A stretch of 64,000 nt of DNA from an uncultured Christensenella sp. (GCA_910584635.1 CAJUBA010000001.1:108176-172175); one strand, 5' to 3'; shown: positions 44,070 through 60,810, numbered from the stretch's first letter. Translations and numbers: made by a program. The notes: generated by a model not told the origin, from the sequence alone.

Positions 44070-44074
44070 CGCAA

Positions 44075-44106
44075 AGCGCTCTGATTTTTTTCAGGGCGCT
44101 TTTTTG
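44075..44106 (+). terminator. intrinsic terminator after rluB
   Basis: AGCGCTCTGA TTTTTT TCAGGGCGCT followed by TTTTTTG. Confidence 0.8.
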
Positions 44107-44175: not shown

Positions 44176-44204
44176 TTGCAAAAAAAATCGTTTGCAAATA
44201 TAAT
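44176..44204 (+). promoter_or_regulatory. sigma-A-type promoter of the decarboxylase operon
   Basis: TTGCAA at 44176-44181, a 17-nt spacer, then TATAAT at 44199-44204. Confidence 0.6.
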
Positions 44205-44306
44205 AGTTATGATTGTGAATTTGAGAGGAAATTTTTCAAAAATTTCTTATATAAACAATATATAGTAATTAAATTCATTTATATACACAACATTTTGGAG
44301 GTTTTT

Positions 44307-45785
44307 ATGGAGAACAAAACACTCTTGGCAAGCGTTAAGGCTTTGGACAAGGCTACATCCGACATAAAAGCGTTTTTGGAAAACATTGTGGACGAAGAAA
44401 GTTTCGTTGAAACGGACGTTTTCTTGACGGGTAAAAGTTTTGACAGCGCTGACGAAGCGCTTGGCGAAGGCGTTGTAACCGGTTACGCTACTATGGGCGG
44501 AAATCCCGTTCACATTTTTGCGCAGAACGCAAACGTGCTTAAAGGTAGTTTGAGCGACGCTCATGCAAACAAGATTTATAAATGTATGCAAAGAGCGATT
44601 AAATCCGGCACGCCGTTGATTTCCGTTATCGACAGTTGCGGCGCCAGAGTAGGCGAAGGCGCAAGCGTTATGGAAGGTTATGCAAAACTTATCGCGGGTA
44701 GTTTTCAACTTTCGGACGAAGTCCCGCATATCTGTATAATTAAAGGCGTAGCGGTTGGTATGATGGCTACATTTGCGGCTAGCGCGGATTTTGTATTTAT
44801 GTCGAAAGACGCAATAATGTCGGTAAATTCTCCCATGTATCTTGTCTCCGACGCAAAATCTTTCCCGGTAGATTACAAGGCGCAATTGGGATATAAGGCG
44901 TACGAAGGCGAAAGCGACGTTGCTCAGTTTGTATTCAACGACGCTAAAGATCTCGCTCAGAAGTTGCAGAAACTTACTTCTACGTTGCTTAGCGACGAAG
45001 GCGAGCCGTCGGACGATCCCAACAGAGTCGATCCTAAACTTGAAAAAATCAATTCTGCAAAAGAAAGAACGACTTCCGTATGCGACAAAAACAGCGTTAT
45101 CGAATACTGTCCTACTTACGCTAAAGAGGTTGTTTGTTCGTTTGCAAAACTCAACGGACTTTCCGTCGGCGTTATAGCGACCGAAGGGGACTATATATCT
45201 GTCAAAGGTTTGGAAAAGGCAACATCGTTTGTAGAAAAACTCGAAGCGTACAACATCCCGCTTATTACATTGGTGGATTCGCTTGGCGTGGATTCTTCGC
45301 TTAAAGAAGAGATTGCCGGATTTGCAAAGAAGACAAGCGCTTTGATGAAGGCTATTTCGTTGAGTACCGTTCCAAAGATAGGGGTTGCGGTAGGCAATGC
45401 GGTTGGCTACGCGTATAGCGCTCTTATGAGCAAGGCTATAGGTTTTGATTACACTTTGGCTACTAGCGGCGCGGTAATCGCTCCCGTTGGTATGGATGTT
45501 AGCAAAGTAATAGCGGCAGATCAGATAAAGGAAGTAGGAAAGAAGGCCAAAGAAGCGAGCGAAAAAACCGATATAGATGCAAACGCTTTGGAAAAGGCTA
45601 TGAAGTATTTCGAAAAGGTAATGTCCAAAGTCGAAATAAAGGGTAAGAGCGTGGAAGAGGCTTATGCAGAGATGCAAAGCAATCCCCTTATTGCCGCAAA
45701 AGACGGTTATATCGACAATGTTATCGAGGCTACGAATCTCAGACCGTATATCTCATCGGCGTTGCTGATGGTACTCGGTCTATAA
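44307..45785 (+). CDS. acyl-CoA-type carboxyltransferase (methylmalonyl-CoA decarboxylase alpha / transcarboxylase 12S family)
   Basis: The ATG at 44307 behind GGAGG is preferred; the ORF-track start at 44172 lies in promoter DNA. GEGVVTGYATMGGNPVHIFAQN...SVIDSCGARVGEG resembles the carboxyl-transferase N-domain signature. 492 aa. Confidence 0.8.
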   Translation: MENKTLLASVKALDKATSDIKAFLENIVDEESFVETDVFLTGKSFDSADEALGEGVVTGYATMGGNPVHIFAQNANVLKGSLSDAHANKIYKCMQRAIKSGTPLISVIDSCGARVGEGASVMEGYAKLIAGSFQLSDEVPHICIIKGVAVGMMATFAASADFVFMSKDAIMSVNSPMYLVSDAKSFPVDYKAQLGYKAYEGESDVAQFVFNDAKDLAQKLQKLTSTLLSDEGEPSDDPNRVDPKLEKINSAKERTTSVCDKNSVIEYCPTYAKEVVCSFAKLNGLSVGVIATEGDYISVKGLEKATSFVEKLEAYNIPLITLVDSLGVDSSLKEEIAGFAKKTSALMKAISLSTVPKIGVAVGNAVGYAYSALMSKAIGFDYTLATSGAVIAPVGMDVSKVIAADQIKEVGKKAKEASEKTDIDANALEKAMKYFEKVMSKVEIKGKSVEEAYAEMQSNPLIAAKDGYIDNVIEATNLRPYISSALLMVLGL

Positions 45786-45798
45786 TCGAGGTGAGGTA

Positions 45799-46269
45799 AT
45801 GAAGAAGGAAATCTCAAAGAAAAAATTGATACGTACTATCATTATATGCGTTGTGTTCGCGGCGTTGTTGGCGGGACTCATATATTTGATGGTATCCGAT
45901 CAGGATTACGGTTCGCCCGACAGATTGGAAATAGGAAGCCAGAGTTTCGGACAACGTTTGTGGATTGGTCTGCAAGTAGCGTTTTTGGGATTGGCAACCG
46001 TATTTTTGATGTTGATTTTGTTGATTCTTGCCGTGAATATAATAAAACTTATATTCATGGGATTTGCTCAACTTAAAGAAAATCGCAAGAATAAAACAAA
46101 AGTGCAGCCAGCGGTTGAAACCCGGTCGGTATCAAATTCTGTAGAAGTAAGCGACGACGATGAAATAGTAGTTGCGATAACGGCGGCTTTGACGGCTTAT
46201 TACGACGCTCAAGAAGTGGAGTATAAGTCTAATCTTAAATTCAAAGTTCGTTCAATTAAAGAAATTTAA
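45799..46269 (+). CDS. OadG/MmdD-like small membrane subunit of a Na+-translocating decarboxylase
   Basis: Two hydrophobic helices, including GLQVAFLGLATVFLMLILLILAV, and a C-terminal DDDEIVVAITAAL segment, as in OadG-family subunits. Confidence 0.65.
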   Translation: MKKEISKKKLIRTIIICVVFAALLAGLIYLMVSDQDYGSPDRLEIGSQSFGQRLWIGLQVAFLGLATVFLMLILLILAVNIIKLIFMGFAQLKENRKNKTKVQPAVETRSVSNSVEVSDDDEIVVAITAALTAYYDAQEVEYKSNLKFKVRSIKEI

Positions 46270-46301
46270 TCAAATCCAAATAAAGATAGGAGAAAAATAT
46301 T

Positions 46302-46661
46302 ATGCGTAAATTTAACATCAATGTAAACGGTAAAGCGTATGCGGTCGAAGTAGAGGAAGTTCTCGACGGCGGTCAAGTAGTAGTATCCGCGCCAAAGGCT
46401 GCGGTTGCTCCCACTCCGAAAGCGGCAGTAAGCGCTCCTGTGGCAGGAAACGGCGAACCGGTAAATGCTCCGATGCCCGGTCTTGTAAAGAAACTTGCTT
46501 TTGCAAACGGCGCTACTGTAAAGAAAGGAGATACTATCATAATTCTCGAAGCAATGAAGATGGATACTCCCGTATCCGCTCCGAAAGACGGCGTAATCAC
46601 TTATTCCACATCCGAAGGCACAAACGTTGATACGGGCGCGGTTCTTTGCACTATTGCATAA
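46302..46661 (+). CDS. biotin carboxyl carrier protein (1.3S/MmdC-like)
   Basis: 119 aa with an Ala/Pro-rich linker and the biotinylation motif EAMKMDT. Confidence 0.9.
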   Translation: MRKFNINVNGKAYAVEVEEVLDGGQVVVSAPKAAVAPTPKAAVSAPVAGNGEPVNAPMPGLVKKLAFANGATVKKGDTIIILEAMKMDTPVSAPKDGVITYSTSEGTNVDTGAVLCTIA

Positions 46662-46684
46662 TCGTTTAAGATATTGGAGGCAAA

Positions 46685-48085
46685 ATGTTTAGCATAATTA
46701 CTACGCTGCAATCGGGTTTAATGACTGATTCGATTAAAAACTTGTGGCTTAGCACCGGCTTTATGACAAGCCTGACGCCGATATGGCAAAACCTGATAAT
46801 GATGGTTATAGCCTGCGTTTTGATTTATCTTGCCGTCGCTAAGGAGTTTGAACCGAATTTGTTGCTTGCTATCGGTTTCGGCATGTTTATAATCAATATT
46901 CCGGGCGCATACAACGTGTTGTACGGAACACCCGGTTATACGTTTACGGGTCCGGTGGAAGTCGACGGACAAATGATAAATCAAGTTTTAATGTACGAGG
47001 GACAAAAATTGTCCGGTACAATAACTGAACTTTCTCAGATTTTAGGTCTAAACTTCAAAGAGGGTACCAGTCTTGCTTCGCAGTTAGGCTCAATAGAGGA
47101 GACTATTCGCGACATCTTCCCGGATATTCAAAATAAAATCGTAATATCTCACGAAGCGGTATCCGATCAAGGTTTGTTTTTCTACCTGTATAAAGGCGTT
47201 GAATGGGTTATTTATCCGCCGTTGATTTTCTTGGGAATAGGCGCAATGACCGATTTCGGTCCGTTGATTGCGAATCCGAAATCGTTGATAATGGGCGCAG
47301 CCGCGCAGTTGGGTATATTCGTAACGTTTATAATCGCTATAAATATCGGATTTACAGGCGAAGAAGCGGCCGCTACAGGTATTATCGGCGGAGCGGACGG
47401 ACCTACGGCGATTTATGTTACGGTAAAACTTGCCGCTCATTTGTTGCCCGCTATTTCTGTCGCCGCGTATTCGTATATGGCTTTGATAAAGGTTATTCAG
47501 CCGCCTATTATGAAACTTATGACGACGAAGAAAGAAAGAGGTATCGTTATGGAACAACTTCGTCCCGTTTCCAAGACGGAGAAAATTGTCTTCCCGATAG
47601 CGGTTACAGGTATAGTCGGAATGATTTTGCCGTCTGCAATACCGCTTTTGGGTATGTTGATGTTAGGAAACCTTATGAAAGAGTCCGAAGTCGTTCCAAG
47701 ACTCACGAATACGGCTAAAAACGAACTTATAAATATTATTACGATAATTCTTGGCGTAATAGTAGGTAGTAAGGCTACGGCGGACGTATTCCTTAACACA
47801 AAAACATTGTTGATTATCCTTATAGGCGTATTTGCGTTTGCATTCGGAACTACAGGCGGTCTTCTTATCGGAAAACTCATGTCCAAACTTTCGAAGGGCA
47901 AAATCAATCCGCTTATCGGATCAGCGGGCGTATCCGCAGTTCCTATGGCGGCAAGAATTTCGCACATGGTAGGACAGGAAGAAAATCCGAGCAACTATTT
48001 GCTTATGCACGCAATGGGACCGAACGTTGCCGGAGTTATTGGCTCGGCGGTTGCGGCAGGCGTTTTGCTTGCAATCTTCGGTTGA
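46685..48085 (+). CDS. Na+-translocating decarboxylase beta subunit (OadB/MmdB/GcdB family)
   Basis: FEPNLLLAIGFG, GAMTDFGPLIANP, GIIGGADGPTAIY, YSYMALIKVIQPPIMKLMTTKKER, PLIGSAGVSAVPMAAR and LMHAMGPNVAGVIGSAVAAG all closely match my recollection of OadB. Confidence 0.92.
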   Translation: MFSIITTLQSGLMTDSIKNLWLSTGFMTSLTPIWQNLIMMVIACVLIYLAVAKEFEPNLLLAIGFGMFIINIPGAYNVLYGTPGYTFTGPVEVDGQMINQVLMYEGQKLSGTITELSQILGLNFKEGTSLASQLGSIEETIRDIFPDIQNKIVISHEAVSDQGLFFYLYKGVEWVIYPPLIFLGIGAMTDFGPLIANPKSLIMGAAAQLGIFVTFIIAINIGFTGEEAAATGIIGGADGPTAIYVTVKLAAHLLPAISVAAYSYMALIKVIQPPIMKLMTTKKERGIVMEQLRPVSKTEKIVFPIAVTGIVGMILPSAIPLLGMLMLGNLMKESEVVPRLTNTAKNELINIITIILGVIVGSKATADVFLNTKTLLIILIGVFAFAFGTTGGLLIGKLMSKLSKGKINPLIGSAGVSAVPMAARISHMVGQEENPSNYLLMHAMGPNVAGVIGSAVAAGVLLAIFG

Positions 48086-48122
48086 TCGAAGACACTATCT
48101 TAATTAAGAGAGGTATAAATTT

Positions 48123-49520
48123 ATGGTAATGATTACAGAAACAATATTGCGCGACGCTCATCAATCTCAGGCCGCTACGAGAATGAGACTTGACGAGATG
48201 CTTCCGATGTGCGAAAAGTTGGACAACGCGGGTTATTATTCGATAGAATGTTGGGGAGGAGCGACTTTTGACTCTTGTCTTAGATTTCTTAACGAAGATC
48301 CGTGGGAGAGATTGCGCGCTTTGAAAAAGGCTATGCCTAAGACTAAGTTGCAAATGCTTTTCAGAGGACAGAATATTTTGGGATATAAGCACTACGCGGA
48401 TGACGTCGTAGATCAGTTTGTCAAAAAGACTATCGAAAACGGTTGCGATATACTTCGTATATTCGACGCTTTGAACGATCCCAGAAATATGGAGCAGGCA
48501 ATTAAGAGTTGTAAAAAGTACGGAGGTATATGCGAGGCTACGATTTCTTACACGACGAGTCCGGTACATACCAACGAATACTTTATAAAACTTGCGAAAA
48601 CCCTTGAAGACATGGGCGCGGATAATATCTGTATAAAAGACATGGCGGGTATTTTGTTGCCTTACGTCGCTTACGATTTGGTAAAAGGCATGAAAGCAGT
48701 GCTTAAACCGCAAACTAAAATACACCTCCACACGCACCAAACGGCAGGTACGGGTAACCAAACCTATTTGAAGGCTATTGAAGCGGGCGTAGATATAATC
48801 GACTGCGCGTTGAGCGCTCTGGGTAACGGTACTTCTCAGCCTGCAACCGAGCCTATGGTCGCTATTCTCAAAGGAACGGAGTACGATACCGGACTTGACG
48901 TGGCTTACCTCAATGAGATATCCAATCATTTCAAAAAGGTTGCAGACAGATTGAAAGCGGACGGATGGCTTACCGATAAATCATTGGCTACAGACGTAAA
49001 CGCTTTGATATATCAAGTACCTGGCGGAATGCTTTCCAACCTTGTAGGACAGTTGAAAAAAGCCAACGCTTTGGATAAATACGACCAAGTATTGGCGGAA
49101 GTTCCCAACGTTAGAAAAGATTTGGGATATCCTCCTCTTGTAACTCCGACAAGCCAAATTGTCGGCACGCAAGCGGTGTTCAACGTTCTCGCAGGAGAGA
49201 GATATAAAATGGTTTCGGCAGAAACGAAAGGCGTATTAAAGGGTGAGTACGGTCAACTTCCTGCTGAGCCTAACCCCGAAGTTATTTCAAAGGTTTTGGG
49301 CGACGCCGAAAGAATTACTTGCAGACCCGCTGATCTTTTGAAGCCTGAACTTGAAAAGTATCGTGAAGAAATCAAAGAATATATCGAGCAAGAAGAAGAC
49401 GTTCTTTCTTACGCGCTCTTCCCGCAAGTTGCTCTCAACTTCTTTAAGTACCGTCAAGCAAATAAAAAACGCGTTGACAGAGAAGTCGGAGATACCGTAT
49501 CGGGAATTCAGCCTGTATAA
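48123..49520 (+). CDS. oxaloacetate decarboxylase alpha / pyruvate carboxyltransferase (5S-like) subunit lacking a biotinyl domain
   Basis: The N-terminus ITETILRDAHQSQAATRMRLDEM...ECWGGATFD belongs to the HMGL-like TIM-barrel carboxyltransferase family. HLHTHQTAGTG is present. The protein ends at 465 aa with no AMKM motif. Confidence 0.88.
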   Translation: MVMITETILRDAHQSQAATRMRLDEMLPMCEKLDNAGYYSIECWGGATFDSCLRFLNEDPWERLRALKKAMPKTKLQMLFRGQNILGYKHYADDVVDQFVKKTIENGCDILRIFDALNDPRNMEQAIKSCKKYGGICEATISYTTSPVHTNEYFIKLAKTLEDMGADNICIKDMAGILLPYVAYDLVKGMKAVLKPQTKIHLHTHQTAGTGNQTYLKAIEAGVDIIDCALSALGNGTSQPATEPMVAILKGTEYDTGLDVAYLNEISNHFKKVADRLKADGWLTDKSLATDVNALIYQVPGGMLSNLVGQLKKANALDKYDQVLAEVPNVRKDLGYPPLVTPTSQIVGTQAVFNVLAGERYKMVSAETKGVLKGEYGQLPAEPNPEVISKVLGDAERITCRPADLLKPELEKYREEIKEYIEQEEDVLSYALFPQVALNFFKYRQANKKRVDREVGDTVSGIQPV

Positions 49521-49536
49521 TGATAATTAAATAATA

Positions 49537-49575
49537 AAGATGCAATTCCCGATGGGAGTTGCATCTTTATTATTC
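49537..49575 (+). terminator. intrinsic terminator closing the decarboxylase operon
   Basis: AAAGATGCAATTCCC GAT GGGAGTTGCATCTTT followed by ATTATT. Confidence 0.75.
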
Positions 49576-51691: not shown

Positions 51692-53140
51692 ATGATAAAT
51701 ATTGCCATAGACGGACCGTCCGGCGCGGGAAAAAGTACAATAGCGAAAACAATTTCCAAAAAGTTGAATATAATGTATCTCGATACCGGAGCAATGTATC
51801 GCGCGGTCGCGCTTTACGCGCTCGAGAACGGCGCGGATTTGTCTGATTCGGAAGCGATTGGAGAATTGTTAAATAATATAGATTTGACGTTTATCGATAA
51901 CGGAACAGAAAACGCGGTTTGTATTAACGGTCGCGACGTGTCTAAGGAAATAAGGCGTCATGAGATTTCAAAAAGCGCATCGGAAGTATCCAAACTTTCG
52001 AAAGTCAGAGATTTTTTAGTTGAGATGCAAAGAAAAATAGCCGCTGAAAACGATGTGGTGCTTGACGGAAGAGATATTACCAGCAACGTTTTACCCAACG
52101 CAAAATATAAATTTTACCTTACGGCGACAGCCGAAGAGCGAGCAAGAAGAAGATGCTCCGAGTTAAAAGAAAAAGGACAAGACGTTGATTATCAAAAGGT
52201 TTTGCAAGATATTGTCGATAGAGATTACAACGATATGAACAGGCAGATTGCGCCGTTGGTAAAGACTGAAGATTCAATAGAAATAGACAGTACTTCTTTG
52301 GCTCAGGAGCAGGTTGCCGATTTAATATTGACACATATAAAAGAAATTGACGGCAAAAGCGTATGTCCTGTCAATACGGCAGTGGCAAGGTTGCAAGACA
52401 AAGAGATTCAAGCAGTTGCAAAAAAAACTAAAAGAAAGAGTATATTTATTAGAGGTTTCGCCGCGTTTGTAAAGTGGGTAATGGGCGGTCTTTGGCATAC
52501 TAAGATATATTTCAAAGATAATTTTATAAAAAACTCTAAAGCAGTGGTTATATGTAATCACTATTCGGCTTTGGATCCTTGTGTAATCATATCCAGATTG
52601 TTGGGAAAGAACGGAAAGGTAATGATGAAAAACGAAATTACCAAAAACAAGTTTATCGCAAGCGTTGCCGACGAGTTAGGCTGTATACCTGTCAAGAGAG
52701 GGGAAGCCGACTTGAACGCCGTTAAAAAAGTGCTGTCGGCGTTGAATCACAACAGCCAAGTCCTTATCTTCCCGGAAGGAACGCGAAATAAAAATGAAAA
52801 TTTCAAGGAGATGTTGCCTTTCAAAGCCGGAGTAGCGACTTTTGCGTTAAAGACAAAATCGCCTGTCGTTCCGATGATGTACTATAAAAAGACGGGGATT
52901 TTTAAGAGAAATAAACTTGTAGTGGGAGAGCCGTTTTGGCTTGACGAGTTTTACGCTCAAAAACCTAGTGAAGTTAAGGACGTCGCTACGGATTACATTA
53001 GAGCGAAGATGGTAGATTTGAGAAAAGAAGTGGATTTGCTGGTAGAAAAATGCAAAGGAAGCAAGAAAAAATATTTGAAGTACAAGCGACTTCAAAGCAA
53101 GGAGTTGTACGAAAATGCCAATAACCGTAGCCAAGAGTAG
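51692..53140 (+). CDS. cmk: fusion protein: cytidylate kinase (N-terminal) plus lysophosphatidic-acid acyltransferase PlsC-like domain (C-terminal)
   Basis: Residues 1 to about 215 carry IAIDGPSGAGKST, LDTGAMYRA and GRDITSNVLP (Cmk). From about residue 290 onward come NHYSALDP (the HxxxxD motif), FPEGTR and VVPM (LPLAT). The 482-codon ORF is uninterrupted. Confidence 0.85.
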   Translation: MINIAIDGPSGAGKSTIAKTISKKLNIMYLDTGAMYRAVALYALENGADLSDSEAIGELLNNIDLTFIDNGTENAVCINGRDVSKEIRRHEISKSASEVSKLSKVRDFLVEMQRKIAAENDVVLDGRDITSNVLPNAKYKFYLTATAEERARRRCSELKEKGQDVDYQKVLQDIVDRDYNDMNRQIAPLVKTEDSIEIDSTSLAQEQVADLILTHIKEIDGKSVCPVNTAVARLQDKEIQAVAKKTKRKSIFIRGFAAFVKWVMGGLWHTKIYFKDNFIKNSKAVVICNHYSALDPCVIISRLLGKNGKVMMKNEITKNKFIASVADELGCIPVKRGEADLNAVKKVLSALNHNSQVLIFPEGTRNKNENFKEMLPFKAGVATFALKTKSPVVPMMYYKKTGIFKRNKLVVGEPFWLDEFYAQKPSEVKDVATDYIRAKMVDLRKEVDLLVEKCKGSKKKYLKYKRLQSKELYENANNRSQE

Positions 53141-55304
53141 CGGATTTTGCCAAGGCGTGAAAAAAGCGGTCGACGTCGCTATGAATATGAGCGAACCTGT
53201 CGCGGTGTATGGGGAATTGATTCACAACGAAAGCGTTCTTGAAAAATTAAGAGAAAAAGGCGTTGAATGTATAAACGATCTCAGCGAGATAAACGGAAGA
53301 AAACTCATTATCCGTTCGCACGGAGTGGGCAAAGACGTATATGATTATCTTGAAAAAAACAACGTAGATTACGTCGATTGCACTTGCGTTTTTGTCAAGA
53401 AAATTCACAAAATCGTCCATGAAAATTACTTGGCTGGGAAAAGCATAATCATTATAGGAAATCCCTCTCATCCCGAGGTAATCGGTATTAACGGATGGTG
53501 CGAAAATTCGGCAATAATCTACAACGGAGAGGAAAACGTCGAATTTGACGATAAAAAGCAATATTGTCTTGTCGTTCAGACGACCTATGACCATAAAAAA
53601 GTCGAATTATTTATTAAATTTTTACAAAATAATATAAAATCGCTTGATAGAAATAATACAATATGCTATACTACTTTTTGCAGACAAGAAGAGTGTGATT
53701 CTCTAAGCAAAGAGAGTGATTTAATGCTTGTTTTGGGTAGTAAAAACAGTTCCAACACATCTAAATTATTCGATATCAGCGCTCGAAATTGTCCAAATAC
53801 TTATTTGATAGAAACGCTAGCCGATTTAAGTTCGGTTAAGGCGGATAAAAAAATTAAAATCGGCATAGTAGCCGGTGCTTCAACTCCGCCGGAGTTGATT
53901 GAGGAGGTAAAAAATCTAATGAATGAATCTCAAGAAAACATCAAAATTGAGAACGAAACTGCAAAGGAGGATTTTGGCGCGCTTCTTGAGGCTTCACAGA
54001 CTGATAAGTCTATGAATATCAAAGCAGGCAAGTCTTATAAGTGTACGGTTATTTCCGCAAACGAAGAAGGCATTGCCGTTAGTTTTGGCGGAAAAAAAGA
54101 CGGATTCGTGTGCAAAGACGATGCAGAAATGGACGGCGTAGATTATTCGGCTGACAACTATAAGGCAGGCGACATATTTACGGCGATTGTAATTGAAAAG
54201 AATTCTAAGTCCTTACCGAAGGAATACATATATTTTTCCAAGAAAACAGTTGACCAGAGAAATAAAGAAAACAGCGACGCGGTAGAGATGCTTTCTCAAC
54301 CCGAATTTAAGTTGGAGATGAAAGAAGTCGTTAAGAACGGACTTAAAGGCTATTATGGCGGTTACTCCATATTTGTGCCGGCTTCTCAAATTAAAATCGC
54401 TTACGTAACCGACGCGGACCTTGCTAAGTACGTAGGAAAGACGCTTAGACTTCGTCTTATTAAATCCAATAAAGACGATCCGGAAAAAGAACTTGATTTG
54501 AAGAGCAAGAAGTCTTTTATCGCTTCTCAGAAAGTAATACTTGAAGAAGAACAGAAAAAGAAAGAAGACGAAATGTGGGCTTTCTTTGAAAAAGATAAGA
54601 TAGTAAAGGGTAAAGTAAAAAGATTTGCCGAGTTCGGCGCGTTTGTCAGCGTAAACGGACTTGACTGTTTGGTTCACAACAGCGACGCTTCTTACAACAG
54701 AAACGTTCCTGCAAGCGAAGTTTTTGAAATCGGCAAGACTTATGATTTTATCGTAAGATATATCAGCAGAGAAACAGGAAAAATCAAACTCGGATATAAA
54801 CAACTTCAAAAGAAACCTTATGAAATCGCGTTTGAGAAATATCCTGTCGGAAGCATTATAAACGGAACGGTAAGAGACGTAAAGGATTACGGCGCTTTCG
54901 TACTCATCGAAGACAATATCGACGGACTTGTGCCAGTATCTGAAATTTCGCATAGTTTTACTAAGAATCCTGCGGACGTATTGAAGCCCGGCGATTCTGT
55001 AACGGCTCAAATTATCAGATTTGAAGACAACAGAATCACGCTTTCCATCAAGGCTCTTATCGCAAAAGAAGAAAAACAGGTTGAAGAAGTTGTAAGCGAA
55101 GAGGCTTATCAGGAAGCGAAAGAGAAGAGAGCAAAGAAGAACGCTAAGAAGTTTGATACTGCAAGCGCAACTTCCGCTCCTGTAAAAAGAGTTAAAGCCG
55201 TTAAGAAGGAAGAGGAAGAAGTTTCTTCTTGGTCGAGCGATGAAAATGCTACGGCTACTATGGCAGATCTCTTCAAGGGACTTAAATTGGATATTAAAGA
55301 ATAA
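53115..55304 (+). CDS. ispH: fusion protein: IspH (HMBPP reductase) plus a four-repeat S1 ribosomal-protein-like domain
   Basis: The N-terminus GFCQGVKKAV, with later DCTCVFV and NTICYTT cysteines, marks IspH. From about residue 290 there are four S1 OB-fold repeats (for example GKVKRFAEFGAFVSV and GTVRDVKDYGAFVLI). SD AAGGAG. The gene overlaps the upstream ORF by 26 nt. Confidence 0.9.
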   Translation: MPITVAKSSGFCQGVKKAVDVAMNMSEPVAVYGELIHNESVLEKLREKGVECINDLSEINGRKLIIRSHGVGKDVYDYLEKNNVDYVDCTCVFVKKIHKIVHENYLAGKSIIIIGNPSHPEVIGINGWCENSAIIYNGEENVEFDDKKQYCLVVQTTYDHKKVELFIKFLQNNIKSLDRNNTICYTTFCRQEECDSLSKESDLMLVLGSKNSSNTSKLFDISARNCPNTYLIETLADLSSVKADKKIKIGIVAGASTPPELIEEVKNLMNESQENIKIENETAKEDFGALLEASQTDKSMNIKAGKSYKCTVISANEEGIAVSFGGKKDGFVCKDDAEMDGVDYSADNYKAGDIFTAIVIEKNSKSLPKEYIYFSKKTVDQRNKENSDAVEMLSQPEFKLEMKEVVKNGLKGYYGGYSIFVPASQIKIAYVTDADLAKYVGKTLRLRLIKSNKDDPEKELDLKSKKSFIASQKVILEEEQKKKEDEMWAFFEKDKIVKGKVKRFAEFGAFVSVNGLDCLVHNSDASYNRNVPASEVFEIGKTYDFIVRYISRETGKIKLGYKQLQKKPYEIAFEKYPVGSIINGTVRDVKDYGAFVLIEDNIDGLVPVSEISHSFTKNPADVLKPGDSVTAQIIRFEDNRITLSIKALIAKEEKQVEEVVSEEAYQEAKEKRAKKNAKKFDTASATSAPVKRVKAVKKEEEEVSSWSSDENATATMADLFKGLKLDIKE

Positions 55305-55438: not shown

Positions 55439-55515
55439 CGGGGTGTAGCGCAGTTTGGTAGCGCACGTGGTTTGGGACCATGGGGCCGGGAGTTCGAATC
55501 TCTTCACCCCGACCA
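55439..55515 (+). tRNA. tRNA-Pro (anticodon UGG)
   Basis: Hand-folded cloverleaf. Acceptor stem CGGGGTG/CACCCCG. Anticodon loop TTTGGGA. T-arm GGGAGTTCGAATCTCTT. Encoded CCA. Confidence 0.93.
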
Positions 55516-55537
55516 GATCGCAAAGCGCAAATTGTGT

Positions 55538-55614
55538 GGGCCATTAGCTCAGTTGGTTAGAGCAACCGGCTCATAACCGGTCGGTCCAAGGTTCGAGTCC
55601 TTGATGGCCCACCA
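55538..55614 (+). tRNA. tRNA with CAU anticodon (Met, or lysidine-modified Ile2; the body resembles Ile2)
   Basis: Acceptor stem GGGCCAT/ATGGCCC. Anticodon loop CTCATAA. Encoded CCA. The D-arm AGCTCAGTTGGTTAGAGC resembles Bacillus tRNA-Ile(CAU). Confidence 0.9.
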
Positions 55615-55643
55615 CATAATATAATAAATATTAAATGGAATTT

Positions 55644-55720
55644 GGCTCGGTAGTTCAGTTGGTTAGAACGCTAGCCTGTCACGCTAGAGGTCGAGGGTTC
55701 GAGTCCCTTCCGAGTCGCCA
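55644..55720 (+). tRNA. tRNA-Asp (anticodon GUC)
   Basis: Acceptor stem GGCTCGG/CCGAGTC. Anticodon loop CTGTCAC. Encoded CCA. Confidence 0.93.
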
Positions 55721-55772
55721 ACAAATTTAATATACTTCTGAATTTTGAGATTTTTATAATCTCTTAATTTAT

Positions 55773-55848
55773 GCCTCGGTAGCTCAGTCGGTAGAGCAGG
55801 GGACTGAAAATCCCCGTGTCGGTGGTTCGATTCCGCCCCGAGGCACCA
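55773..55848 (+). tRNA. tRNA-Phe (anticodon GAA)
   Basis: Acceptor stem GCCTCGG/CCGAGGC. Anticodon loop CTGAAAA. Encoded CCA. Confidence 0.93.
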
Positions 55849-55864
55849 TGCCTATACGGTGTGC

Positions 55865-55940
55865 GCTGGTGTAGCTCAATAGGCAGAGCAGCTGATTTGT
55901 AATCAGCAGGTTGTTGGTTCGATTCCGATCACCAGCTCCA
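55865..55940 (+). tRNA. tRNA-Thr (anticodon UGU)
   Basis: Acceptor stem GCTGGTG/CACCAGC. Anticodon loop TTTGTAA. Encoded CCA. Confidence 0.92.
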
Positions 55941-55951
55941 AAATTAAATAT

Positions 55952-56036
<85 letters not shown>

Positions 56037-56040
56037 CATA

Positions 56041-56080
56041 ATGACTGGTAAGAAATTATACTTATCAGTCATTTAATTTA
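56041..56080 (+). terminator. hairpin closing the tRNA array
   Basis: ATGACTGGTAAG (56041-56052) / CTTATCAGTCAT (56061-56072) followed by TTAATTTA. The T-tract is weak. Confidence 0.5.
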
Positions 56081-56107
56081 CCCGTAATAAACAATTAGGA
56101 TTAGATT

Positions 56108-56491
56108 GTGAACAAAAAAGAGTTTTTAGATAAATGGATTCATACTTTTGCTCCAAATATAACCAAAAGTCTGTATAATAAAAGAATACGCGACCAATAT
56201 ATTTGGCATGCTTTCAGTTGGGACATTATTCCGAAAAGCGCATATCTTAAAGGCGATGATGCAAGGATTGCCTATAACAACGCAAAGAAAAAGGGCGCTA
56301 TTTGTTTACATCTATGGTATGATGAGGAGACAATTCCATTAACGGAAGAATTTTATAATGCGGATAAGTTAGAAACTTCCGATGGAGAACATTCGGAATT
56401 TTACGTTGTAGGGAAAGATTTTGCGTGGACTTATATTGTAACTCATGAAATTGAAATGGGATTAGGTCCTTATTTTATGAGTATAAAATAA
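56108..56491 (+). CDS. hypothetical cytoplasmic protein (possibly DUF4275-like; unverified recollection)
   Basis: 127-aa ORF with a GTG start after AGGAT. Trp/Tyr-rich, ending ...THEIEMGLGPYFMSIK. No TM segment or signal peptide. Confidence 0.5.
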   Translation: MNKKEFLDKWIHTFAPNITKSLYNKRIRDQYIWHAFSWDIIPKSAYLKGDDARIAYNNAKKKGAICLHLWYDEETIPLTEEFYNADKLETSDGEHSEFYVVGKDFAWTYIVTHEIEMGLGPYFMSIK

Positions 56492-56725
56492 ATTATTATA
56501 TATTTTGTCGAGAGTCGTCGCATACTAACTAAACCATAAGACGAACAATATGTTAAATATTTTGATTAGGTTTTATCATTTATGATTTTTTTCAACTTCT
56601 GTCATTTTGATATATTTATTGGATTGCAAATATGCGCCCGCAACGATAGCGTATAGGACTACATTTGCAATTAATGATTAAATACGTTATAATGATTTAT
56701 AATAAACATTATTTTGTGGAGAATT

Positions 56726-57235
56726 ATGATAATTTTAATATCAGGCGCGACGCATACGGGAAAAACTGCATTGGCTCAGCGTTTGTTGGAAAAATACAAA
56801 TTTCCTTATTTGTCAATCGACCATTTGAAAATGGGATTGATAAGAAGCGGGCAAACGTCATTAAGCGTATGCGATGATAAAAATCTTATACCTTATCTTT
56901 GGTCTATCGTTAAAGAGATAATCAAAACGGCGATAGAAAATGAACAAAATCTGGTTGTAGAAGGCTGTTATATTCCGTTTGATTGGGAAAAAGATTTTGA
57001 AAAAGAGTATTTATCGCAAATTAGATATTATTGCTTGATTATGAGTAAAGAATATATTAAAAATAACTATTCGACGATTTTATCTCATGAAAATATAATA
57101 GAAAAGAGATTAGCCGGTGATTTTACGCAAGATGAATTGATTATAGAAAATCAAAATAATCTGCAAATGTGTAAAAAATACTCGTTAAATTATATATTGA
57201 TTGATACAAAATATAAACTCGATATTGAATTATAA
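56726..57235 (+). CDS. small P-loop NTPase/kinase-like protein (2-phosphoglycerate-kinase-like / AAA-kinase fold)
   Basis: Walker A ISGATHTGKTALA at the N-terminus and VVEGCYIP in the position of a Walker B-like strand. It has its own promoter (TTGCAA 56665-56670, 17 nt, TATAAT 56688-56693). The ATG at 56726 is preferred over the TTG at 56714. Confidence 0.6.
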   Translation: MIILISGATHTGKTALAQRLLEKYKFPYLSIDHLKMGLIRSGQTSLSVCDDKNLIPYLWSIVKEIIKTAIENEQNLVVEGCYIPFDWEKDFEKEYLSQIRYYCLIMSKEYIKNNYSTILSHENIIEKRLAGDFTQDELIIENQNNLQMCKKYSLNYILIDTKYKLDIEL

Positions 57236-57545
57236 TTTATCATTTATGTTATTATTGGCGATGTTGAAAGACGTTATTGTAAATCTTGCTTATATTTTTG
57301 CTTAGAAAACGTTCGTTTAATTAGTATCCTATTGTTTTTCTTTAATTTTATTAAGTTTTAGGCATTTTTAAGTCATTTAAGGCGTAATATATGGTATCGC
57401 AATAGTTAATTAGTTTTTCCGGTTAACTAATGGCATGCAAAGTAGATTGTCTCGACCGATAACAGGGGACTACGTTATATAGGACTATCCGCGGCAGTCT
57501 TATGTAAACAGAGACGAAGAATATATAATATAGGAGATATTTTAT

Positions 57546-57797
57546 ATGGAAAAGAACATCACGGACACTACAATAACCAAGGCTGCGCCGACAGTAACTC
57601 CAACAACGCTTTCCGATGAGGAACTTTGCGGTTCGACAAACATTCTTGATACCGTACATCTTAAGAATCTTGTCGACGATCTTTCAAAACTTTACGGCAC
57701 GTTTGTTTGCACAAAGGTTGCAAGAGATGCAAAAATCGCGGCGGAGAAGCGCTTAATTGAAGCAATCCGCGCCAATCTTGACCGTTACGAGGGATAA
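57546..57797 (+). CDS. hypothetical 83-aa protein
   Basis: SD AGGAG 8 nt before the ATG. The N-terminal third is Thr/Pro-rich and the C-terminal part looks helical. It is visibly richer in G+C than its flanks and no family was recognised. Confidence 0.45.
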   Translation: MEKNITDTTITKAAPTVTPTTLSDEELCGSTNILDTVHLKNLVDDLSKLYGTFVCTKVARDAKIAAEKRLIEAIRANLDRYEG

Positions 57798-57830
57798 GAA
57801 ACAGTATTAAAAATATCTAATAAATAAAAA

Positions 57831-57903
57831 ACGGCAGAAATAATCGCTATGCGCTTTGAAATTTACGCTTTTAAGCGGCATAGTATAGTTTCTGTCGTTT
57901 TAT
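57831..57903 (+). terminator. long composite hairpin after the 83-aa ORF
   Basis: Outer stem ACGGCAGAAA / TTTCTGTCGT and inner stem CTATGC / GCATAG, followed by TTTATT. Confidence 0.5.
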
Positions 57904-58036
57904 TATATCTTTTGAGCAATAAACTGTGTTGTTACTAATAAAGGAATTGATTATATGCGCGCTTGAAAAAGTACGCCGTTTATGCTATAATATATTTGTT
58001 TTAATAAACGATAAAATTATTTGGAAGGTAAGATAA

Positions 58037-58516
58037 ATGAGCGATAAGGCATTGGTTGTTATAGATATTCAAAAAGACATTACAAAAAACTACAAATAAA
58101 TCATAGGAAACATAAACAAGGCTATTGATTGGGCGATTGACAATAATATTCACATTGTTTATATTAAACATAATAATTTATCCGCAGGAACAAGAACGTT
58201 TAACCCAAACACGCGCGGAGCGGAATTAGTAGACGATATGAAAATTGCATCAGAGAATATATTTGTCAAGAGTAAAGGCAACGCGTTGACTAGCGACGGA
58301 TTTGCCGATTATGTAGACGCGAATAATATTAAAGAATTTTATATAGCAGGCGCAGATGCTATTGCTTGCGTAAAATCGACGTGTTATAATATGGCAAAGA
58401 ACGGCTATACGGTTCACGTGCTGTAAGATTGTATTACCAGTTACGATAAAAAGAAAATCCCTGAAATGTTAGATTACTACGAACGCGTCGGTTGTAGCAT
58501 TGAAACGTTGAGTTAA
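58037..58516 (+). pseudogene. isochorismatase/cysteine-hydrolase-family gene interrupted by two in-frame TAA codons
   Basis: A single frame reads MSDKALVVIDIQKDITKNYK*IIGNINKAIDWAIDNNIHIVYIKH...EFYIAGADAIACVKSTCYNMAKNGYTVHVL*DCITSYDKKKIPEMLDYYERVGCSIETLS*. The stops are at 58097-58099 and 58424-58426. There is no frameshift. The promoter (TTGAAA 57963-57968, 17 nt, TATAAT 57986-57991) and the SD are intact. Confidence 0.75.
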
Positions 58517-58604
58517 ATAAATGCAATTTTTTGATTTTAAGTAAAAGAAAATCAATACACTTTATAACTGATTTATCAATACGTAAACAAATGAGGCATA
58601 GAAT

Positions 58605-59123
58605 ATGGAATTTAATTATAAGAGAATATTGATAATCGGTTGCGGCGGAGCGGGAAAAAGCACGCTTGCAAGACAACTCGGTAAAAAATTGAATTTACCT
58701 GTTGTTCATCTTGATAAGATTTGGTGGCTACCTAATTGGCAAAACAGAACGAAAGAAGAATTCGATATTTTACTAAAAGAGGAATTGACAAAATCTTGTT
58801 GGATTATCGACGGAAATTATCAGCGTACTTTCGAACAGAGATTGAGTTTTGCAGATTTCTGTATATTTCTTGATTATTCAACCTCGCTATGTATTAAAAG
58901 CGTTCATGACAGAGTTAAGCAATTCAGCGGTAAAAGCCGTCCGGATATGACGGAAGGGTGTTTAGAGATGGTAGATTCCGAATTCGAAGAATGGATATAT
59001 AATTTTCAAAGCGACGTAAAGCCGAAAATGATGTCCGTACTTCAGAATAGCGAGGTTCCGTTTATCGTTTTTAATGATAGAGAGTCGACGGAATCGTGGT
59101 TAAACTCGTTCAATAATAATTGA
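58605..59123 (+). CDS. FlaR-like topology-modulation / adenylate-kinase-fold P-loop protein
   Basis: ILIIGCGGAGKSTLARQLGKKLNLPVVHLDKIWWLPNW...WIIDGNY...GKSRPDMTEGC closely matches my recollection of Bacillus FlaR-type proteins. Confidence 0.8.
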   Translation: MEFNYKRILIIGCGGAGKSTLARQLGKKLNLPVVHLDKIWWLPNWQNRTKEEFDILLKEELTKSCWIIDGNYQRTFEQRLSFADFCIFLDYSTSLCIKSVHDRVKQFSGKSRPDMTEGCLEMVDSEFEEWIYNFQSDVKPKMMSVLQNSEVPFIVFNDRESTESWLNSFNNN

Positions 59124-59220
59124 AAAATGAAATAAAAAATTTTTTTATACTTTATTACAATATTTGACATCTTAATCGTATATGTTATAATAAGAATATC
59201 TTATAAGTGTGAGGTTTGTC

Positions 59221-59694
59221 ATGGATAGGCAAGTAAAGCAAATGGGAGTATTCGGAACTATAATAATTCTTATTATAGGAATAGGAATTCTGTTTGGCGC
59301 TACTTATTATAAAAAGCATTTGGATAACAAATACGGAGATTGGATTCATATTAAAGCAACAGTAGTTGATTATGAAAAAGAGTATAAAAGAGATTCCGAT
59401 CATGGATACGATTGGTATTATCGCGAAATTGTAGAATACGAAGTAGACGGAAATGTTTATAAACAGACAAGCCAATCGTCATCCAATATAAGACCTATTA
59501 TCGGATCCACCAGAGATATTGCTTATAATCCTAACGATCCGCAAGACAGCGTCTTTTATACAAAAGATAAGAATTTGCTGTCAATTATCCTTTATGCGAT
59601 GGGCGGATTGTTTACGATAGCAGGCGTAGCGGGATTGACGTCAAAAATTTTGAAAAAACGCAGAGTAAAACAAGAAGACGGTCCGCTATTGTAA
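59221..59694 (+). CDS. DUF3592-type membrane protein
   Basis: An N-terminal TM helix, a beta-rich middle (ATVVDYEKEY...VEYEVDGNVY...IAYNPNDPQDSVF) and a second TM helix. Own promoter (TTGACA 59164-59169, TATAAT 59186-59191). The ATG at 59221 behind GAGG is preferred over the GTG at 59209. Confidence 0.65.
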   Translation: MDRQVKQMGVFGTIIILIIGIGILFGATYYKKHLDNKYGDWIHIKATVVDYEKEYKRDSDHGYDWYYREIVEYEVDGNVYKQTSQSSSNIRPIIGSTRDIAYNPNDPQDSVFYTKDKNLLSIILYAMGGLFTIAGVAGLTSKILKKRRVKQEDGPLL

Positions 59695-59856
59695 AACACG
59701 AAGATTCATATTGAAATATTTTGAGAAAAAAGCATGTCATATTGTATAGAGTTATATTTCAAAGAATGATATAAATTTTAATAATAATATTTCTTGACAT
59801 ACATTTTACATTCTGCTATTATATCTTTGTAAAAATAAAATCATAAGAGGAGCGTT

Positions 59857-60795
59857 ATGAATAAGAAACTTGCTGAGTTCTGTACGTCGAAGGGTATGGC
59901 GGTTAACGGTATGCAGGCTTATGGCGTCATAAACGAATATGAAGTCAACGTAAAAGAACTCAATGTGAATCAAGCGTCCAACAGCGGGGAGTATCCATAT
60001 CAATTCCATTTTTCTTTTTACGCTACGGACGATCAAAAACGCATTATGAAAAATGCGTTAGACGACGCTAAAATTAAGCGCTGTCAATTTCATTTTACCG
60101 AATACGGATTGTATGTTGCATTAACAGACTTTACGCTTGGCAAATTGATAGAGAGGTTGCCTTCGCTTTTCGAATTGTTCATCTCTACGATTTCGAATAA
60201 CGGCGGTCTTAACCGCCAGTACTGCCCGATGTGCGGCAAAGAATTCTGCGATAATAAGCAAGAATTGAAACTAGACGGATTTTCGATAGGCATCGACAGC
60301 GATTGTAAAGACAGCATAAATGCCGCTATCGAATCAGAAAATAAAGCGTTTGAAGAAGCGCCTAACAATTATCTCAAAGGCGTATGTGGGGCGTTGGTCG
60401 GCGGAGTAATAGGAATAGTAGTCGCTATCATATTGTTTAATATGGGCTTCTATTCGTCTATTGCGGCAATCGTATCGATAGTAGTCGGAACTTTGCTTTA
60501 TAAAAAATTCGGCGGCAAACCTACGAAGATGATGATAGTTATCGTATCTATGGTAACTCTTGTATTTATGGCGATTTCGGTATTCTTATGTTATTTTATA
60601 GACGCGGGAATTGCCGCTAAAGAAGTCGGTTTGGATATTTCCGCATTCGAAGCGTTCAAAATTATTATGGATGACGAAGAGATCGCAGGTATGTTCAGAG
60701 TTGATATGATAATGGTATTGTTGTTCTCGATTATCGGCGTAGTATTGGAATCGGTTTATATTTCAAAATCGTTAAAGAGAAAACAAAAAATTTAA
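59857..60795 (+). CDS. hypothetical membrane protein: soluble N-terminal domain of about 165 aa with a Cys cluster, plus four C-terminal TM helices
   Basis: SD AGAGGAG. Own promoter (TTGACA 59794-59799, 17 nt, TATTAT 59817-59822). CPMCGKEFC motif, then four hydrophobic stretches from about residue 175. No family was recognised. Confidence 0.6.
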   Translation: MNKKLAEFCTSKGMAVNGMQAYGVINEYEVNVKELNVNQASNSGEYPYQFHFSFYATDDQKRIMKNALDDAKIKRCQFHFTEYGLYVALTDFTLGKLIERLPSLFELFISTISNNGGLNRQYCPMCGKEFCDNKQELKLDGFSIGIDSDCKDSINAAIESENKAFEEAPNNYLKGVCGALVGGVIGIVVAIILFNMGFYSSIAAIVSIVVGTLLYKKFGGKPTKMMIVIVSMVTLVFMAISVFLCYFIDAGIAAKEVGLDISAFEAFKIIMDDEEIAGMFRVDMIMVLLFSIIGVVLESVYISKSLKRKQKI

Positions 60796-60810
60796 TAAGT
60801 ATTGTCTTAA

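Follow-up and report, generated by a model that had tools for sequence, protein, structure and literature searches.

Na+-translocating biotin decarboxylases are a textbook case of decarboxylation-driven energy conservation, and the question raised by the locus described here is why one such pump should be encoded together with two unrelated carboxyltransferases (CTs). The locus is a five-gene operon (44307-49520) in a 64,000-nucleotide stretch of DNA from an uncultured Christensenella sp. (GCA_910584635.1 CAJUBA010000001.1:108176-172175), which as a whole is referred to as the window. An earlier reading made from the sequence alone (hereafter the sequence-only reading) had proposed five plus-strand genes for a biotin carrier, a membrane anchor, a pump and two CTs. 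Open reading frame (ORF) prediction and domain and family searches confirmed both their positions and the parts list:

44307-45785, plus strand: P1, 492 aa, carboxyltransferase-fold protein, a strongly diverged 12S/MmdA/PccB homolog with most hallmark motifs gone
45799-46269, plus strand: P2, 156 aa, OadG/MmdD-like membrane anchor with a C-terminal DDDEIVVAITAALTAYY motif
46302-46661, plus strand: P3, 119 aa, biotin carboxyl carrier with an EAMKM site
46685-48085, plus strand: P4, 466 aa, OadB-type carboxybiotin decarboxylase and Na+ pump
48123-49520, plus strand: P5, 465 aa, short OadA/5S-type oxaloacetate-pyruvate carboxyltransferase, a TIM barrel without a biotinyl domain

A single CT is found in each characterised Na+-pumping decarboxylase (PMC7145394), as the sequence-only reading had also stated for the classical enzymes, and the present operon joins both kinds of CT with a pump. 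It is this combination of a pump with 12S-type and OadA-type CTs, together with the diverged subunit P1, that is new here, whereas the families of the parts and the chemistry of the pump are known. In the literature we found no description of this architecture, of an oxaloacetate decarboxylase (OAD) or methylmalonyl-CoA decarboxylase (MMD) in Christensenella, or of a pseudo-carboxyltransferase; there were only passing annotations of clustered genes for a CT, a biotin carboxyl carrier protein (hereafter BCCP) and OadA.

Our preferred answer, to which we assign a probability of about 0.45, is that the operon encodes a Na+-pumping OAD built on an MMD-type chassis, in which the original alpha subunit, P1, is now mainly structural. 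We infer that the five proteins form a single membrane complex, which would be a biotin-dependent Na+-translocating OAD of the 'split' Firmicutes type. P5 would transfer the beta-carboxyl group of oxaloacetate to the biotin of P3 with release of pyruvate, the biotin would swing to P4, and P4 would decarboxylate the carboxybiotin and export Na+, with P2 tying the soluble parts to P4. P1 would descend from the alpha subunit of a 12S/MmdA-type CT, on an MMD- or transcarboxylase-type chassis to which oadA was added at the 3' side, and today it might be an assembly or core subunit, possibly a regulatory one, like the 12S hexamer in the transcarboxylase core. The physiological role that we infer, like this evolutionary route, is that oxaloacetate (e.g., from phosphoenolpyruvate carboxykinase, PEPCK) would be converted to pyruvate while a sodium-motive force is built up. 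A membrane OAD together with PEPCK has been proposed as a generator of sodium-motive force in a gut clostridial relative (PMC10756260).

The pump, the carrier and the oxaloacetate CT look fully functional, P4 and P5 judging from their intact catalytic residues. P4 matched PF03977 (OAD_beta) with an E value of 6e-152 and TIGR01109 with 469.5 bits (cut-off 190.6). In an alignment with Salmonella OadB (StOadB), residues E40, D203, Y229, R304, N311, N373, G377, S382, N412 and S419 were all conserved in P4 (E40 and D203 correspond to P4 E56 and D238); these ten have been shown by mutagenesis to be indispensable for catalysis, folding or Na+ binding (PMC7274780). P4 also has an extra segment after the first helices (residues ~78-133), of which only the flanks align with Salmonella OadB, and the OadB proteins of other subclades (L021, L106-L108) are 382-429 aa long, compared with 466 aa in the window.

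P5 consists of HMGL-like and PYC_OADA domains and has no biotinyl domain. It passed the short-OadA model NF008985 ('oxaloacetate decarboxylase subunit alpha'; 732.9 bits, cut-off 718) and also the PycB domain-type model NF006761 (725.5 bits, cut-off 402), and it did not reach the 5S equivalog model NF008984 (595.2 bits, cut-off 827). Its top match in the Protein Data Bank (PDB) was the beta subunit of a two-subunit pyruvate carboxylase, and it was roughly equally close to Vibrio cholerae OadA (VcOadA; 2nx9, E = 9e-158) and to 5S (1rqb, E = 2e-147). P5 residues D11, K172, H203 and H205 align with VcOadA D17, K178, H207 and H209, which we take to be the metal ligands (Asp, carbamylated Lys and two His) of the 2nx9 structure.

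The gamma-type anchor and the carrier with an (A/V)MKM site that an OAD requires are provided by P2 and P3. P2 exceeded the cut-offs of both PF04277 (OAD_gamma; 58.4 bits, cut-off 27) and TIGR01195 (oadG_fam; 39.8 bits, cut-off 36.05) and weakly matched the MmdD model NF047902. An extra hydrophobic segment (residues ~12-32) was seen at its N-terminus (45799-45870); distant gamma subunits lack this segment, their matches beginning at residue 47-58, and the gamma subunit of locus L039 has only 96 aa. P3 matched PF00364 (Biotin_lipoyl; 57.7 bits), and its top NCBIfam match was the MmdC model NF047903 (82.9 bits, residues 1-112). In addition, P3 residues 3-118 align with positions 481-594 of the long-OadA model NF010643, so that its N-terminal segment matches both the MmdC N-terminus and the region of long OadA ahead of the biotinyl domain. 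For P2 to P5, the family models therefore agree with what the sequence-only reading had assigned, including the length and EAMKM site of the carrier and the lack of a biotinyl domain in P5.

These four proteins have a close counterpart in the split OAD of Enterococcus faecalis (OadA, OadB, OadD and OadH), in which a short OadA, a separate carrier, an OadB pump and a small anchor work together. However, the E. faecalis enzyme has four subunits with no CT-fold fifth, and it is encoded in a citrate-fermentation locus rather than among housekeeping genes (PMC6193673). The classical OadGAB enzymes of Klebsiella, Salmonella and Vibrio are expected to share the same chemistry, and the window proteins keep the essential residues of beta and the metal ligands of alpha. 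In those enzymes, the association domain and the biotinyl domain form part of a single alpha chain, whereas the window encodes a separate P3 and an extra CT-like protein. Thus, the subunit set of an OAD (alpha, beta, gamma and, in Firmicutes, a separate carrier) is exceeded by the 492-aa CT-fold protein P1, the first product of the operon.

The sequence-only reading had described P1 as an acyl-CoA-type CT of the MmdA/12S family. The fold stood up: P1 matched PF01039 (Carboxyl_trans) with E = 3e-64, and its AlphaFold2 (AF2) model, with a mean predicted local distance difference test (pLDDT) score of 85.9, had 12S (1on3) as top PDB match (template modeling score 0.81, 28% identity), followed by the beta subunits of propionyl-CoA carboxylase (PCC). 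The family assignment did not. Although the best NCBIfam match of P1 was MmdA, it obtained 212.7 bits against the MMD alpha-subunit model TIGR01117 (mmdA), whose cut-off is 998.8, and its identity was ~30% to PccB and 12S or to any solved relative.

We then compared motifs in an alignment of 11 members of the P1 clade with 14 canonical CTs taken from metagenomic loci of the MMD type (CT-gamma-BCCP-beta), the transcarboxylase type (CT-BCCP-5S) and others including PCC-type. Of 187 near-invariant canonical columns, 50 were kept in at least 10 of the 11 P1-clade members and 70 were lost. Among the losses are the second position of oxyanion hole 1 (G to M, L or V), the conserved glycine of hole 2, most invariant basic residues and the C-terminal tail. 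The main motifs changed as follows:

canonical QDFTVxGGS: QNxxVLKGS in the P1 clade
canonical NDSGGARIQEG: DSxGARVGEG in the P1 clade
canonical GPCAGGAVYSPA (oxyanion hole 1, GPCAGGAVY): KGxxVG(M/L)M in the P1 clade
canonical DVPGFLPGxxQE..GIIRHGAK: DSxGVxxxLxxE in the P1 clade
canonical RKAYGGAY (oxyanion hole 2, YGGAY): GNA(V/I)GxxY in the P1 clade, with RK lost
canonical AWPxAEIAVMG: LATxxAxISP in the P1 clade

In the window protein itself, GPCAGGAVY has become GVAVGMMAT and YGGAY has become VGYAY. The hole-2 position varies even inside the clade, where it is Y, F, L, A, V, M, N or G, and all motifs common to the MMD-type CTs of four comparison loci (L043, L052, L070 and L100) are altered in P1. 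According to a recent structural study, carboxyl transfer requires two glycine-based oxyanion holes (bioRxiv 10.64898/2026.02.06.704326). It is thus probable, as far as sequence comparison can tell, that P1 is not an ordinary MmdA/12S acyl-CoA carboxyltransferase. Separately, a helical insertion of ~29 residues, VGKKAKEASEKTDIDANALEKAMKYFEKVMSKVEIKG, is present at residues ~412-440 (45540-45626) in the window protein and in those relatives that are closest to it (at least 74% identity); the remaining clade members (460-470 aa) do not have it, and the pLDDT drops there to 60-77.

The evolution of P1 also far outpaces that of its partner subunits, which is not so for canonical CTs. Across P1-clade operons, identity to the window proteins was 31-59% for the CT, 59-71% for OadB and 69-83% for OadA. 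In canonical operons the CT keeps pace with its partners, with 53-67% for the CT versus 49-64% for beta in the MMD type and 58-66% versus 59-62% for 5S in the transcarboxylase type. When five close relatives were compared, the nonsynonymous substitution rate (dN) of P1 was ~3 times that of P5. The possibility that P1 is a decaying pseudogene was rejected, since its ORF is intact in ~40 loci, its ratio of nonsynonymous to synonymous rates (dN/dS) against the five close relatives is 0.04-0.07, indicating purifying selection, and its AF2 model is confident. In a neighbor-joining tree, the P1 clade was monophyletic with long branches, apart from all canonical CTs. The tree did not place its origin within either the MMD-type or the transcarboxylase-type CTs, and the mean identity of P1 to all CT groups was 30%, with the CT of locus L066 marginally on top (31.6%).

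To see in which organisms and surroundings such a protein is found, we read the loci of relatives within ±10 kb of the matches. The P1 homologs came only from uncultured Clostridia which, where a name is given, are called 'Christensenellales', 'Christensenella sp.' or 'Ca. Neoclostridium'. Their annotation is hypothetical protein, carboxyl transferase domain-containing protein or occasionally MmdA or AccA/D, and one source labels a homolog 'methylmalonyl-CoA decarboxylase subunit alpha'. Each P1-clade locus of sufficient length for a verdict carried all five genes in unchanged order, and this extends to L059 and its subclade, with P1 identity as low as 31%; the operon lies nearly always between scpAB-ytfJ-dacB-rluB and surE-HI0933-cmk. 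P5 is its most conserved gene product, and across the order its gene is the last of the five-gene unit, directly after oadB. The conserved gene set and chromosomal site lead us to conclude that the operon is an old, vertically inherited core feature of Christensenellales. A recently acquired island was rejected as an explanation, as GC content and skew match those of the flanks and the neighborhood is constant across the order.

Two kinds of gene cluster help to trace where P1 came from. The order P1-P2-P3-P4 is the CT-gamma-BCCP-beta order of three loci (L043, L052 and L070), one of which (L043) is a true MMD operon with genes for mutase, B12 subunit, MeaB, epimerase, canonical CT, OAD_gamma, BCCP and beta; because of this identical order, an MMD-type origin is suggested. 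The MMD pumps of Veillonella parvula (MmdADECB) and Propionigenium modestum (MmdADCB) likewise have the alpha-delta/gamma-BCCP-beta order and a beta pump of the same family, and P1 to P3 have MmdA, MmdD/OadG and MmdC as best family matches. In contrast to these pumps, which have a canonical CT, the window operon has the diverged P1 and no linked mutase or epimerase, and it has an appended OadA-type CT, which is found in no characterised MMD (PMC7145394).

The second kind is the transcarboxylase of Propionibacterium, whose 12S hexamer core, 5S and 1.3S subunits are matched in the window by a 12S fold, a 5S-type TIM barrel and a small carrier encoded together. That enzyme is soluble and has no membrane subunits, while the window operon encodes OadB and OadG homologs; in both it and the CT-BCCP-5S clusters the 12S is canonical and an OadB pump is absent, where the window has a degenerate 12S-like P1 with a pump and an anchor. 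Predicted CT-BCCP-5S clusters include Cthe_0699-0701 and Gbem_0334-0337 (PMC3561251, PMC2996986), and the pump-less clusters of Clostridium thermocellum, Geobacter and isolate BL-4 have been labeled transcarboxylase or 'ODC' by guess.

Pump-less clusters of this kind were also found among our comparison loci. Neither gamma nor beta is encoded in L066 (6860-10419) and L087, whose clusters consist of genes for a canonical CT (516-520 aa), a BCCP and a 5S/OadA of 465 aa. The L066-type cluster sits between rluB-like and HI0933-like genes whose products are 44-45% identical to the window flank proteins; these flanks are as close to the window as those of L106, which has a degenerate CT and a pump. 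It appears that the L066-type cluster and the window operon occupy the same locus, which in pump-less lineages holds a canonical CT and in pump-bearing lineages a degenerate one. Such tracking of the CT state with the pump would be expected if OadB had taken over the discharge of carboxybiotin, thereby freeing the CT from catalytic constraint.

On the other hand, several observations weigh against a mainly structural P1. The purifying selection on P1 is strong, and at short distances P1 and P4 have an equally low dN. P1 retains the first glycine of each oxyanion hole as well as Y370 and S375-K376. Also retained are the loops (GGS and xGAR..EG) whose backbone, in AccD5, touches the adenine of propionyl-CoA and its thioester carbonyl, with AccD5 S116 and A146-A148-I150 corresponding to P1 S81 and G112-A113-R114. 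The catalytic groups of CTs are backbone amides, so that the loss of a glycine is no proof of lost activity, and hole 1 of AccD4 is G-A, which means that its second residue need not be glycine (bioRxiv 10.64898/2026.02.06.704326). The sequence-only reading had named the lack of catalytic residues in one of the CTs as an outcome that would speak against it; on this point the hole glycines and several motifs are indeed gone, but catalysis by backbone amides and the kept GGS and GAR loops leave the outcome divided. Moreover, no P1-like subunit is needed by the split OAD of E. faecalis (PMC6193673), and the structural role is suggested for P1 by analogy with the 12S core. Lastly, a relative whose operon has the same gene neighborhood (L039, 6986-10532) has a diverged CT (GIR for GAR), the 96-aa gamma-like protein, a BCCP and OadA but no oadB in the operon. 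Either the pump was lost secondarily or oadB lies elsewhere, and such an operon makes sense only if the CT accepts the carboxyl group or if oadB is located elsewhere.

These points keep alive a serious, if less probable, alternative, in which P1 is an active CT whose specificity has shifted to another acyl-CoA (e.g., acetyl-CoA/malonyl-CoA) or to a non-CoA acceptor, making the operon a true hybrid complex. Carboxybiotin made by P5 would then either be passed by P1 to an acceptor, for instance in an ATP-independent synthesis of malonyl-CoA, or be decarboxylated by P4 with Na+ export, and the sodium gradient could set the partition. Besides the strong purifying selection (dN/dS 0.04-0.07), the retained CoA-contact loops, hole glycines, Y370 and S375-K376, and the L039 operon without OadB, this alternative is favored by motifs that are invariant within the P1 clade (DDPNR, GFDY and VLKGS), which suggest a new constraint and not decay, and by the canonical CT-BCCP-5S clusters at the same locus in other Clostridia. 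In isolate BL-4, a cluster of a CT (33% identical to 12S), a BCCP and an OAD has likewise been proposed to be a transcarboxylase, although a mutase was not found (PMC7764203). Against it stands the loss of 70 of the 187 near-invariant positions, among them the second-position residues of both oxyanion holes, PGF, GIIRHGAK and the majority of the invariant basic residues; the hole-2 position is unconserved even inside the clade; the CT outpaces its partners, which the CTs of working MMD and transcarboxylase operons do not; and no candidate genes for a substrate pathway lie near the operon. A more specific form of this alternative, a sodium-coupled transcarboxylase, is in our opinion possible but less likely than not: P1 would be a CT of new specificity, and carboxybiotin, obtained from oxaloacetate or from the Na+ gradient through OadB running in reverse, would be used partly for Na+ export and partly to carboxylate an acceptor such as acetyl-CoA. 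The sequence-only reading had offered a dual-substrate pump or a membrane-associated transcarboxylase, the latter being in essence the hybrid complex just described; both are possible, but neither is the best supported.

It is improbable that the co-transcribed genes serve two enzymes, with P5 being, for example, the PycB half of a pyruvate carboxylase whose biotin carboxylase is encoded separately. P5 does exceed the PycB model cut-off and has the beta subunit of a two-subunit pyruvate carboxylase as its top PDB match. However, it has no biotinyl domain, no biotin carboxylase gene was found in the 64-kb window, P5 also passes the short-OadA equivalog model, and it is the most conserved product of the operon, its gene always standing last after oadB across the order.

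The least probable reading, and a very unlikely one, is that P1 is a genuine MMD alpha subunit feeding a pump for which methylmalonyl-CoA and oxaloacetate both serve as carboxyl donors, which is the dual-substrate pump of the sequence-only reading: the best NCBIfam matches of P1, P2 and P3 (MmdA, OadG/MmdD and MmdC), the MMD-like gene order and the one homolog annotated as MMD subunit alpha speak for it, but P1 as a bona fide MmdA was rejected on the curated cut-off (212.7 versus 998.8 bits), on the alteration of every canonical motif of the L043, L052, L070 and L100 CTs, and because mutase, MeaB and epimerase genes, which adjoin the operon in L043, were found neither in the window nor beside any P1-clade operon. 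Nor is cultured Christensenella known to produce propionate.

Under either of the two leading readings, the five-subunit version of the pump is a trait of Christensenellales, an abundant, health-associated and poorly cultured gut order, and P1 is either a 'fossil' CT kept as a structural subunit or a CT of new specificity. A structural P1 would mean that the pump has switched its substrate, a new catalytic module having been added while the old one was kept as a pseudoenzyme. An active P1 would tie sodium bioenergetics directly to carboxyl transfer, possibly with ATP-free malonyl-CoA synthesis across the order. Either way, the labels given to P1 homologs ('hypothetical protein', 'methylmalonyl-CoA decarboxylase alpha' and 'acetyl-CoA carboxylase carboxyltransferase') are unreliable for metabolic reconstruction, which is of concern to those who study biotin enzymes, anaerobic bioenergetics and the metabolism of gut microbes.

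With regard to the boundaries of the operon, the single transcription unit proposed by the sequence-only reading is borne out by the tight spacing of the five genes (gaps of 13-37 nt between neighbors) and by the same genes, order and neighborhood down to 31% P1 identity. Its promoter and 3' hairpin with a T-run were also found, as consensus matches only, and the number of promoter- and terminator-like matches in the region was not above the shuffled expectation:

44073-44102, plus strand: terminator-like hairpin ending the upstream rluB, 5' operon boundary; 12-pair stem with 6 GC pairs, then a T-run; consensus match only
44176-44204, plus strand: promoter-like TTGCAA-17-TATAAT; 10/12 matches; consensus match only
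49531-49573, plus strand: terminator-like hairpin, 3' operon boundary; 20-pair stem, 3-nt loop and T-rich tail; consensus match only

The mechanically predicted ORF of P1 opens at TTG 44172. We place the start at ATG 44307 instead, because a GGAGG ribosome-binding site (44298-44302) precedes it and all homologs use the equivalent Met. No riboswitch or leader RNA above threshold was found upstream of the operon with Rfam. On the minus strand, a 476-aa antisense ORF (44247-45677) spans nearly all of P1 and another of 297 aa lies opposite the start of P5; both are most likely shadow ORFs, and nothing points to coding.

The rest of the window consists of housekeeping genes (secDF, recJ, relA, pnp, ftsK, miaB, rny and others), and no mutase, epimerase, acc or pyc genes were found in its 64 kb. 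Downstream of the operon, one 482-aa ORF (51692-53140) encodes a fusion of cytidylate kinase with a PlsC-type acyltransferase. In L021, L024 and L025, cmk and plsC are two adjoining genes; the fusion partner of cmk in L106-L108 is instead a chorismate mutase domain. The next ORF (53115-55304, 729 aa), with IspH (LytB) and S1 RNA-binding domains, overlaps the end of the cmk-plsC ORF by 26 nt at its start. It is followed at 55439-60800 by six tRNA genes (Pro, Met, Asp, Phe, Thr and Tyr) and then a stretch of low GC content (32-34% versus ~40%), whose ORFs have no Pfam matches or weak ones only. This stretch beside the tRNA genes may be a small island.

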